A stretch of DNA of 64,000 bases, taken from the NCBI GenBank assembly GCA_965228735.1, contig OZ245838.1:3424001-3488000 (forward strand), given 5' to 3'. Every line of letters begins with the position of its first letter. The stretch's first letter is position 1. Source of the DNA: Planctomycetota bacterium. GTDB lineage: Bacteria > Planctomycetota > UBA1135 > UBA2386. The position numbers were made by a program, and so were the translations under genes. Below the pieces are notes generated by a model that was not told where the DNA came from, did no database searches, and saw only the letters and a program-made list of their open reading frames with translations. Of this stretch, positions 58,933 to 62,151 are shown one piece after another.

Positions 58933-60414
58933 TCAGCGCCGCGGCCGTTGCTGCAGCAGGTAGAACAGCAGGTTGTTGGTGAACAGCGGATTGCTCGTCA
59001 GGCCGATGTGGTCGTCGGCGAGGAACGTCACGCTGTCCCAGTCGACCGGCGAATCGATGAAGCCCTGGCCCATGATCTTCATGTTGGCGAGCGCGCTGAA
59101 CCGCGGCACGGTGCCGTCGCCGAACTCGTAGACGTCGCCGGAGAAAAGCGGCCGCAGGCGGTCGCCGTCGCGCGCCATCCGAACCCGAGCGAGCGTCGGA
59201 ATCGTGTCCGAGGCGAACAACCGCATCTCGACCGGGCTCGGCGTCGGCGGCACGACGTCCAACGCGCGATGGAACCGCGCGGCGACGTCGAGGTTGCGCG
59301 CCAGCAGCCCGCGCGCGCGGTCTCGGCGCGCGGCCGGATCCGGCTCGTCCGGCATGAGCCACTCGAGGTATCGCGCGGAATCGGGATCGAGCAGCCCCCA
59401 CCCGTTGTCGTCCCAGGTCGCGACGTCGAAGAGATCCAGCGCGAGCGGCGCGCCGTTCTCGTCGACCACGAGCCCCATGCCGTTGCGCGGCAGCAACTCG
59501 TAGATCGAGGTCATCGTGCCGAGCAACGCGCGGTCGTAGTGCGGCAACAGTGTCGCGGGCTGGAACCCGTTCAACAGGTTGGCCAGCGACTCCATCGAAC
59601 CGAGGTTGGGCGTGCCGACCATCACGAGCCGGTCGACCTGTTCGGCGCCGGCCCAGGTCACCTCGGGTGCTGCGCCGGCGGCGGGCAGCGGCGCGTCGCC
59701 GTAGCGCAGGTAGTAGCGCGCGACGAGCCCGCCCATCGAGTGCGCGACGAGATCGAACTTCCAGTCGCTCGCGAGCCACGCCTCGATCTCGGCGGCCTCC
59801 TGCAGCGCCGCGGCGTCACCACGTTCGCGCAGCGTATCGACCCGCCCCTGCGCGGACTGGTTGATCTTCGCGCGCGTCGCCGTGAGGTAGTCGTGCAGCG
59901 CGAGCGCGTTGTCCGCGCAGTCACGCCGCCAGTCGTAGAAGAACGTCCAGCACGTGTAGTGGTCCTCGTTGTAGGCCGGAGTCCCCGGATCGAGGAGCAC
60001 CTTGTCGGTGAAGCCGCCGACGCCGAGCGAGCGCAGGATGTTGGCGTAGACGCTGACGTTGATGACGGTGAAGAACAGATCGAGCTCGATCGCGCCGAGC
60101 GGCCCGGACGGATAGACGTCGTAGTCGAGCTCGTCGAGCGCCGGCGTCATCGGCAGCGCGAGAGCGCGTGCGCCCGCCGGTGTCGCCGGGTCGATCGATT
60201 CGCCCGTGAACGCGCCCCAGACCGTCTTGCCCGTCGACCGCTGCTCGAGCCTGGAGCCGAGGATGCCGTGCATCACGATCACCGGGTTGCGAACGTAGGT
60301 GTGCGCCGCGGATTCGTAGATCTCCTGGATCGCTGGCTCGGCGTCGCGGAACGAGCTGCAGCCGCCGGCGACGACCAGCGGAACGAACGACAGGGACAGG
60401 ACGAGGCGCTTCAT
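58933..60414 (-). CDS. Lipase/acyltransferase-like alpha/beta hydrolase lipoprotein
   Basis: Lipobox AGGC, 'HGILGSRL', 'FFYDWRRD', AHSMGG, 'GTPNLGS' and 'GDGTVP'. Confidence 0.88.
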   Translation of the reverse strand: MKRLVLSLSFVPLVVAGGCSSFRDAEPAIQEIYESAAHTYVRNPVIVMHGILGSRLEQRSTGKTVWGAFTGESIDPATPAGARALALPMTPALDELDYDVYPSGPLGAIELDLFFTVINVSVYANILRSLGVGGFTDKVLLDPGTPAYNEDHYTCWTFFYDWRRDCADNALALHDYLTATRAKINQSAQGRVDTLRERGDAAALQEAAEIEAWLASDWKFDLVAHSMGGLVARYYLRYGDAPLPAAGAAPEVTWAGAEQVDRLVMVGTPNLGSMESLANLLNGFQPATLLPHYDRALLGTMTSIYELLPRNGMGLVVDENGAPLALDLFDVATWDDNGWGLLDPDSARYLEWLMPDEPDPAARRDRARGLLARNLDVAARFHRALDVVPPTPSPVEMRLFASDTIPTLARVRMARDGDRLRPLFSGDVYEFGDGTVPRFSALANMKIMGQGFIDSPVDWDSVTFLADDHIGLTSNPLFTNNLLFYLLQQRPRR

Positions 60415-60440
60415 CGGGCTGGAATGTAGCATTACGACCG

Positions 60441-61697
60441 ATGCTGACCGTGGTGCCCATTCTCCTGACTTCGGCCCTCGCGGTGCCCACGCCGCAGGGA
60501 CCGTCACAGGGACCGTCGCAGGCGAGCCCGGATCCACAGTTCGTCGCCTGGCGGGATCACATCGTGCCAACGGTCGCGGAGTGGCGCTGGCAGCAGATCG
60601 ACTGGCGGCCGACGCTCGGGGCCGGCCTGCGCGCCGCCGCGGCAGCCAGGAAGCCGCTGTTGCTCTGGCTCATGAACGGCCACCCGCTCGGCTGCACTTG
60701 AGGCAACGGAGTCCGGGACCGGCGGGTCTGGTCCGACGAACGACTGCAGGAGCTGGCCACGAACTTCGTGCCCGCGGCCGACGAGGTGTGGCGGCTGCAG
60801 CGCGACGACGAACCGGAGTGCCGCTGGTTCCGCGAAGCCGTGCGCGGTGACCGCTTGCCGAGCCGCGGCTCGATGCAGGGCACCTACGTGCTCACGCCGG
60901 GCGGCGAATGCCTCGGCCGGATCAACTCGGGTGATCCGGAGAAGGTCGCCAGCATGCTCACGGCGGCGCTGACGAAGTGGCGCGCGCGACCGGCGCCCGA
61001 CGATGCCGACGCTGCGGCACCACCGCCGGCCCCGGGTCATCGCTGGGAGCAGAGCTACCCCTCGGACGGTCTCGTGCTCGAACGCTTCGCGCGCGACGTC
61101 GGCGCGGCCCCCACCGAGGAACCGCGTCGCCCGGTGAATCGCGACGCCGTGTGGTTCAGTGCCGAGGAAGCGACCGGCTGGCTGCCCGGCGAGCCCGAGG
61201 TCGGGCAGAAGGGCAAGGTCGCGCCGATCGTCGTCCTGCGTCTCGCACGCACCGCGTTCGTCGACAACGTGCGCGGCCAGACGCTACCGTTCGCCGCCGC
61301 CGAGATCGATCGCGCCGATCTGCTCTACACGGTGCGCGCGGTGGACGACGAGCACGTCGCGTTCGAACTGCGCGGCACCACCCGGGCGGAGGCCGGGGGT
61401 CCGTGGCTCGGCGGCGAGTCCTACTGGCGACCCAAGCGCGAGTGGCCACGATCGCTCGCCACGGGCATGCGCGGTCACGCCATCTGGGATCGCACCGCGC
61501 GCCGGTTCGTCGCGTTCGAGCTCGTCGCGCTCGGCACGCGCCGCGGCCGCACGGCGTTCAACGGTCGCGCGCGCGAAGAGGCCGCGAGCATGCACCGCAT
61601 CGGGTTCGCGCTCCGACTCGCGCCGGCAGAGTTCCGCGTCGCACCGACGTTCGTGAACGTCTACGACGCGGACTGGGTCACGCACCCGGCGAAGTAG
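60441..61697 (+). CDS. Putative selenoprotein, SelN-like thioredoxin fold (CxU), UGA 60699-60701 read as Sec
   Basis: ORFs 60441-60701 and 60768-61697 are in the same frame, separated only by TGA. Readthrough gives 'KPLLLWLMNGHPLGCT-U-GNGVRDRRVWSD'. Downstream hairpin and signal peptide present. Confidence 0.8.
60711..60737 (+). promoter_or_regulatory. Bacterial SECIS-like hairpin
   Basis: GGACCGG-(CGGGT)-CTGGTCC with outer GTC/GAC pair. The loop starts 21 nt after the UGA, with G at loop position 2. Confidence 0.65.
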
Positions 61698-61734
61698 TCC
61701 AACGCCGGGTGGCACCCGCCAGGCATCGACCGCC

Positions 61735-62151
61735 TCAGCGGCCGAGCACCTGTTGGATCGCCTTGGTCACACCAGCCTCGGTCTGGTTGTGACCCGACTC
61801 CTTCCACAGCAACTTCCCCTCGGCGTCGGTAATCACCATCCCGTGGATGTTGAGCTCGTGCTTGGCGATCAACGCCTGCGACTCGTCGGTGTAGTGCTCG
61901 AGCACCTGGAACTTCATGGCATCACCGAACTGCGTTTCGAGCCCATTCACGATGGGCACCACTGCACCGCAGCGCGGTCAATTCTCCATGTTGATGTAGG
62001 TGAGGATCGGCATCGCGCCGGCCTTCGGCTTCTCGCCGGCCTCCGCGATGTTGGAACCGGCATCCGCCGGGTCGGACTTCGGCGTCTCGCTCGTGCAGCC
62101 GAATGTCACGGCACAGAGCGCGGTCAACGCCAGGATGAGGATGAGTCGCAT
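61735..62151 (-). CDS. Putative selenoprotein, thioredoxin-like lipoprotein (UxxC), UGA 61980-61978 read as Sec
   Basis: ORFs 61978-62253 and 61735-61962 are in frame. Readthrough gives 'ILTYINMEN-U-PRC-GAVVPIVNGLE', 138 aa from ATG 62151, with lipobox TFGC. Confidence 0.85.
61941..61957 (-). promoter_or_regulatory. Bacterial SECIS-like hairpin
   Basis: The mRNA reads GCCCAU-(CGUGA)-AUGGGC. The loop starts 26 nt after the UGA, with G at loop position 2. Confidence 0.6.

Follow-up and report, generated by a model that had tools for sequence, protein, structure and literature searches.

The question raised by this locus is whether two neighbouring open reading frames are separate small genes or the halves of one hidden selenoprotein gene. 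They lie in a window of 64,000 nucleotides, the whole stretch of planctomycete DNA that was analysed, to which coordinates refer unless a genome contig is named. Translation table 11 yields an ORF of 86 aa (60441-60701) and another of 309 aa (60768-61697). Both belong to a single frame of 418 codons on the forward strand (60441-61697, +), which starts with ATG at 60441, ends with TAG at 61695-61697 and contains TGA only once, at 60699-60701, codon 87. Readthrough gives a protein of 418 aa with the peptide of the original prediction at the flanks of the TGA; coordinates and translation agree with the two ORFs in one frame that had been described. Judged from sequence and models together, the TGA is very likely decoded as selenocysteine (Sec87), and it is reasonably likely that the predicted selenoprotein gene (60441..61697, +) encodes an exported selenol-dependent reductase, a thioredoxin domain followed by a beta-rich C-terminal domain, forming a permuted selenoprotein N (SelN) core.

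The start of the gene lies 26 bp (60415-60440) from the start of a divergent alpha/beta-hydrolase lipoprotein gene (60414-58933; Pfam LCAT, E 1e-7). A -10-like box of the type TANNNT, TAGCAT (60427..60432, +), read from the sequence, precedes the ATG by 8 nt and could give a leaderless start. A mirror TANNNT box is located 8 nt before ATG 60414 of the hydrolase gene. A box at this distance from each divergent start suggests back-to-back leaderless promoters.

An assembly error, which the original prediction had named as a possible origin of the TGA, was rejected. Positions 60200-61900 show 0 differences in contigs of three runs from three studies, any of which may itself be the source of the window DNA. 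A fourth run (X12) covers the region in pieces, without spanning the TGA. The window DNA occurs in runs of 10 studies, and the named habitats include coral and macroalgae metagenomes; no RNA dataset was listed among its carriers. An alternative code was also rejected. The host genome, one contig of 7.19 Mb with 69.4% GC, has a standard code because its tRNA-Trp carries the anticodon CCA and because TGA, a codon common here by chance, terminates 1553 of 2356 long ORFs. The machinery for selenocysteine is present: selA (E 1e-109), selB, seen as the SelB winged-helix (wing) domain, selD, which adjoins selA and has its own in-frame TGA, and the tRNA-Sec gene selC. Among relatives of the host, selA was found in 60 of 61.

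Four copies of the family are encoded in the host genome, the window gene and three paralogs, all with TGA at the same position. They share G-H-P-L-G-[CQ]-T, TGA, [GN]-N-G; the paralog L004 (G000:C1:6929273-6930499) has Q-T-U in place of C-T-U. The family was detected in 31 of 61 relatives; of the 52 rows obtained there, 51 contain one TGA, the position of which was checked for the fetched loci. In the phylum, 122 of 301 genomes have matches at E<=0.001, weak rows including related families. At the fetched loci, all 68 family sites with a stop at position 87 use TGA; one spurious regex row was dropped from this count, kin are not independent, and the site pattern accepts any codon at position 87 while missing divergent non-stop forms. 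The terminal stops of the same 68 genes are mixed (37 TAG, 24 TGA, 7 TAA). Among the best 150 of 1401 representative database proteins, 136 begin no earlier than residue 89, as expected of split products, and 14 are full length. The expected splitting by annotation is borne out by these post-TGA fragments, which make the family a large annotation blind spot. Position 87 of the 14 full-length non-TGA homologs is occupied by Cys in seven, by Ser, Ala, Asp or Arg in the other seven and by Trp in none. P0055 represents a natural Cys homolog with C-T-C. Homologs ending at the TGA or carrying Trp there had been set beforehand as contrary outcomes and did not appear; the 68 sites, the Cys homologs and the selABCD genes all speak for the predicted recoding.

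A true stop would leave two small genes or a pseudogene, or the codon would be recoded as Trp or Gly. This reading is extremely improbable, although TGA is the commonest stop of the host genome and gene callers split the frame. The break would fall inside a thioredoxin fold at the nucleophile, the 68 sites never hold TAA or TAG, and Cys homologs occur as fused proteins. Across the family, the fourth codon behind the TGA takes several forms (GTC, GTG, GTT, GTA, ATC, CAG), hence no conserved restart codon follows. Trp or Gly recoding is further opposed by the ordinary host genes, most of which end in TGA, and by the CCA anticodon of tRNA-Trp.

Selenocysteine insertion requires attention to the RNA following the TGA. 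A bacterial SECIS-like hairpin (60716..60734, +) comprises a 7-bp stem (60716-60722 / 60728-60734) and the loop CGGGT (60723-60727). It has a spacing of 21 nt from the UGA and a folding energy of -9.5 kcal/mol, as described in the original prediction with its CG-initiated loop. A published bSECIS rule asks for a loop of 3-9 nt, a stem of 4-16 bp, a spacing of 16-37 nt, an energy of at most -7.5 and a G within the first two loop positions (PMC13188914, accessible text). With a loop of 5 nt starting C-G, a stem of 7 bp, a distance of 21 nt and -9.5 kcal/mol, the window hairpin conforms to this rule, which was applied by an in-house no-bulge scan rather than bSECISearch and which 15% of control positions pass. 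The rule is satisfied at 37 of 68 family sites and, within these genes, at 185 of 1221 control positions; in this no-bulge scan, 31 of the 68 sites fail the -7.5 kcal/mol limit. Taken alone, the window hairpin is no better than dinucleotide shuffles in this DNA of 69% GC (z +1.07, +0.44, +1.35, -0.38), and relative to synonymous recodings it is a borderline case (z -2.07, p 0.05). The mean synonymous-recoding z was -1.27 at 35 family sites versus -0.18 at 280 controls. Support for the window hairpin comes from the family.

A proximal stem register covaries in the family, with 21 two-sided changes and 0 of 500 shuffles, while the distal register (columns 18-25 with 31-38) shows no clear covariation. 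A single family-wide SECIS register was rejected. The window gene is one codon short in the proximal-register region and uses its own register. The loop G is confounded, since an invariant Arg codon constrains it as well. Other TGAs of the host genome are followed by similar pentaloops: CGGGC in selD, CGGGT and CGTGA in other candidates. Rfam gave no match in L003. Insertion of Sec87 would almost certainly be the work of SelB and Sec-tRNA, bound as a complex to the in-frame hairpin of the window gene.

The N-terminus, residues 1-14 (60441..60482, +), is hydrophobic and signal-peptide-like, ends with A-L-A and is without a basic n-region. Hydropathy is ~2.0 over residues 1-17, and no later segment of membrane length is present (maximum 19-residue mean 1.0). 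Hydrophobic N-termini are found in homologs, too. Very probably this segment exports the protein to the periplasm.

A thioredoxin-fold domain of the AGR2/DsbH/DsbD-gamma/UAS subtype spans residues ~30-185 (60528..60995, +). The AlphaFold model of the 418-aa protein (pLDDT 93) assigns the predicted Sec87 (60699..60701, +) the place of the thioredoxin nucleophile; the residue stands behind strand 73-78, where helix 88-97 begins. Structure matches likewise locate residue 87 at the N-terminal end of the helix that follows the central strand, and Sec87 aligns with the active Cys of AGR2 (E 0.14). The best structural matches are thioredoxins of the AGR/DsbH/DsbD type, not peroxiredoxin or GPx folds. 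Sequence searches of Pfam, NCBIfam and PDB with the family gave nothing above cut-off; Thioredoxin_7 (PF13899) scored 14.2 bits versus a cut-off of 27. NCBIfam had no match for the 418-aa protein at E<=10, and the best NCBIfam matches of family members reached E 0.02-0.2, each for one of 16 members. Motifs of the type CxxC or UxxC are absent, with Gly at +3 from Sec87. The C of the CxU motif, Cys85 (60693..60695, +), is a candidate resolving cysteine. Invariant in 69 TGA-type sequences are W55, G80, the Sec site, N89, G90, R94, Q146, D275 and G279. Cys85 is retained in 63 of the 69; Q, in the paralog mentioned, and H, N or V in other members take its place, which marks it as a nonessential residue on alignment evidence. 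The loss of Cys at position 87 in 7 of 14 non-TGA homologs suggests that the fold also serves non-redox roles. Tandem paralogs occur in G273:C37 (L109), where a TGA copy stands beside a Cys-less copy, and in G164:C42 (L111) with two TGA copies. P0014 and P0073 have other C-terminal extensions.

The original prediction had likened the active site to that of SelN. A language-model atlas returned the eukaryotic 'Selenoprotein N' cluster as top match of the Cys homolog P0055 at 0.89, a lead below the tool's threshold of 0.9; two planctomycete clusters follow at 0.88. SELENON has the motif SCUG with adjacent Cys and Sec (PMC12839072, accessible text). A planctomycete SCUG family, in most rows D-D-E-S-C, TGA, G-S-G, possesses a 200-residue middle domain preceding the thioredoxin domain (L070, L113-L121; relatives P0270-P0389); its database entries are truncated at the TGA. 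Of 401 phylum genomes, about 10 are strong carriers; in the host genome, neither the L070 query nor a middle-domain profile detected the family. It is taken here as the bacterial SelN type on the basis of the JGI name 'selenoprotein N' on 2 of 120 relatives listed and of the motif.

Profile comparison of the thioredoxin domains of the window and SCUG families gave an HH probability of 96% (E 1e-9), with Sec on Sec. The SCUG family reached 96.7% versus 97.4% and 98.2% for two other planctomycete Sec-thioredoxin groups. The match of this domain alone is not SelN-specific on these profiles; the specific evidence is the second domain. In a thioredoxin tree, calculated with 14 of 69 family rows, the window family forms a separate clade on its own long branch; its deep branches are unresolved and support no statement on a donor or on the order of events. 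At the presumed cis-Pro site, occupied by Pro in the SCUG family, the window protein has Met145 (family consensus Arg), according to a gapless extension of the profile alignment. The adjoining Gln146 (60876..60878, +) lies next to the position of this invariant Pro in SelN-type proteins.

The beta-rich C-terminal domain, residues ~200-418 (61038..61694, +), is a probable homolog of the SelN-type middle domain. The profiles of both match with a probability of 63% (E 7e-5) and a score of 36.7 over 116 collinear columns. Control scores were 14.6 for the reversed profile; 30 column shuffles did not exceed 20.3, and the best of 47 natural decoy profiles reached 20.6. By subfamily, the probability is 72% for the 57-member group and 2%, no match, for the 12-member subfamily B alone. 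The match lies in the twilight zone; with single sequences, HMM scores do not exceed 8.7 bits. A separate AlphaFold model of a SCUG protein (pLDDT 95.6) was compared with that of the window protein by element order. The SCUG middle domain and the C-terminal domain run through 10 elements in the same sequence: two strands, a helix, a strand, a helix and five strands or strand pairs, with one extra short helix in each domain. Secondary structure is shared at 76 of 116 aligned positions with 2 helix/strand clashes, versus 38-71 shared positions and 5-12 clashes in shifted alignments. Three helices before the thioredoxin core correspond in both models. No Pfam or PDB match was obtained for the C-terminal domain, and the structure lists, with the full protein as query, were filled by thioredoxin domain matches, which says nothing on the novelty of the fold. 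The atlas, queried with the C-terminal part of P0002 among named clusters, gave no usable match.

It is doubtful that the protein is a real Sec-thioredoxin with a C-terminal domain unrelated to SelN, its likeness reflecting shared AGR2/Thioredoxin_7 ancestry. Such an origin would accord with thioredoxin profiles that do not single out the SCUG family, with the weak single-sequence scores and with the missing match of subfamily B. Against it stand the collinear profile match well above natural decoys and shuffles and the common element order of two models, and a chance likeness to one and the same protein would be needed for two domains. From sequence profiles and models, the C-terminal domain is probably the SelN middle domain placed after the thioredoxin domain, so that the protein would be a circularly permuted SelN core; this reading is based on a comparison with bacterial SCUG proteins.

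The window protein is not SelN itself: it has the motif CxU, a different domain order and no EF-hand that was found. Among Pfam matches of 16 members at E<=1 no EF-hand family occurred, and the model has no room for an EF-hand before the thioredoxin domain. No SelN entry appeared in the PDB searches. SELENON (SEPN1) of animals and some algae resembles the window protein, for which Sec and export are predicted, in the extracytoplasmic Sec-containing thioredoxin domain (accessible text of PMC12839072 and PMC7474598), in U-x-x-G without Cys at +3 and in a probable shared second domain, deduced through the bacterial SCUG family. In contrast, the window protein has C-T-U-G-N-G instead of adjacent C-U, places the thioredoxin domain first and carries a short signal-like N-terminus, which may be cleaved or serve as an anchor, where SELENON has a type II single-pass anchor. 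Its gene has a bacterial in-frame SECIS, unlike SELENON. The bacterial SCUG proteins share the thioredoxin domain with Sec on Sec, the related second domain and the split at TGA in databases; they differ in the opposite domain order, the CU motif, an invariant Y-P at the presumed cis-Pro site and their separate clade. The Thioredoxin_7 folds of AGR2/AGR3/ERp18, DsbH, the DsbD-gamma-like 3f9u, DUF255 and UAS use CxxC or CxxS, whereas the window protein has Sec in CxU and adds a beta domain of 220 residues. Sec in a thioredoxin fold is also known from the catalogued Trx7/PDZ NF041199, VPGUxxT NF041382 and 'Sec.1' (PMC13188914 Table 1, accessible part). 'Sec.1' is listed there as CxU, the same motif, a likeness by description only; none of the thioredoxin-like selenoproteins in this part of Table 1 is listed with the window architecture. 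The resemblance to the SelN active site therefore stands in part. It is favoured by the P0055 match and the profile match and probably extends to the whole C-terminal domain; the motif is CxU and not an adjacent CU, and the thioredoxin domain is not specific to SelN-type proteins.

We infer both 'periplasmic' and 'enzyme'. In the reductase mechanism, Sec87 would attack an oxidised thiol substrate and Cys85 at -2, proposed because position +3 is Gly and not Cys, would resolve the adduct as a selenenyl-sulfide; on the model, this chemistry is slightly favoured. The C-terminal beta domain may select the substrate. A classical disulfide-exchange mechanism is weakened by the loss of Cys85 in 6 of 69 members and by the absence of Pro where a cis-Pro is presumed. 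For animal SEPN1, a reductase gated by calcium has been described, with Sec as the residue that traps SERCA2 (PMC7474598, accessible text).

The same selenoprotein might instead be a small-molecule redox enzyme, peroxidase- or deiodinase-like, and not a protein-disulfide reductase. Asn89, Arg94 and Gln146 would then hold the substrate, a peroxide or a halogenated compound, for reaction with Sec87. All 69 TGA members have these three residues, which are kept by 5, 9 and 5 of 14 non-TGA members, respectively. Gln and Asn helpers stand beside Sec in glutathione peroxidases. The absence of Cys at +3, the dispensable Cys85 and the lack of the presumed cis-Pro fit this function as well. It is nevertheless unlikely, given structural matches of the AGR/DsbH/DsbD type and no Pfam match to peroxiredoxin or GPx families.

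An extracytoplasmic redox sensor or scaffold, in which the state of Sec decides whether the beta domain binds a signalling partner, is quite improbable. Consistent with such a role, P0318 fuses a SelN-type module in its Cys form via a hydrophobic segment to an ECF sigma factor (P0390 is similar and cut at the Sec position), and the Ser/Thr kinase-kelch protein P0037 ends in a Cys-less module of the window family. Half of the non-TGA members are without Cys at position 87, and animal SEPN1 has been termed a sensor-reductase (PMC7474598, accessible text). The fusions, however, are single rows, and no conserved gene neighbour was found beyond the same genus among the loci compared, with flanks of mostly 1.5 kb. 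Neighbours provide no pathway for the family. The reading as a reductase with a permuted SelN core is retained.

A doctoral thesis on a Poribacteria SelN ortholog is said to exist, and bacterial SelN as such may not be new. The literature contained no description of the present family or of a permuted SelN, subscription journals and theses being thinly covered. The family is absent from Pfam, NCBIfam and the accessible part of a 2026 catalogue of 119 families, whose Table 1, as far as accessible, has no SelN-like entry (PMC13188914). The accessible text of PMC12013277 makes no mention of SELENON or planctomycetes, and that of PMC7539508 places SELENON in animals and a few algae. Other planctomycete candidates, one of them a 'hypothetical' selenoprotein, are given in the accessible part of PMC4807772, including Table S9; an overlap with the window family is possible. 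The family is real and uncatalogued; its predicted selenoproteins would act as thioredoxin-type selenoenzymes and are probably permuted relatives of SelN. There is an even chance that planctomycetes harbor an uncatalogued SelN-like superfamily of hidden selenoproteins, consisting of canonical-order orthologs, a widespread permuted form, to which the window gene belongs, and several thioredoxin-only offshoots. If true, the SelN core of two domains would go back to an ancient redox module that worked outside the cytoplasm of bacteria and that eukaryotes inherited or acquired. The interest lies in congenital myopathy, the disease associated with selenoprotein N, whose reductase role rests on indirect trapping experiments. 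No SelN structure had been solved as of 2020 (PMC7474598, accessible text). If the superfamily exists, its soluble members could stand in for the human myopathy protein in studies of structure and chemistry; a bacterial protein of this kind, with its domains swapped, would show the functional core and allow in vitro chemistry.

Further hidden selenoprotein candidates were observed. A gene for a 138-aa lipoprotein-like protein with U-P-R-C (62151-61735, -; TGA 61980-61978) is arranged tail-to-tail with the window selenoprotein gene across a 37-bp gap. It has a hairpin with the loop CGTGA at a spacing of 26 nt (-7.7), and its ortholog in the same genus (L013) retains TGA and loop. Pfam gave no match for it at E<=0.1. 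A scan of the host genome yielded 39 TGA sites with a two-sided coding signal and a SECIS-like hairpin versus 18 TAG controls; the crude scan is incomplete and missed the window gene itself. About 20 of the 39 sites look by eye like redox motifs (UxxC, CxxU, UxxT). These counts suggest a large hidden selenoproteome in the host genome. Six more TGA-split thioredoxin-like genes are located at G000:C1 2546238(+), 5497385(+), 3235945(+), 6694255(-), 4985410(-) and 7165651(-). Those at 2546238 and 5497385 fall into additional SelN-like U-x-x-[AG] groups, which are spread over the phylum and in some cases include Cys forms. The frame at 6694255 is directly ended by a second TGA (G000:C1:6693895, -), followed by a hairpin and an open continuation, which we take to be MsrA-like. 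A double-Sec fusion of this frame with its continuation is possible.
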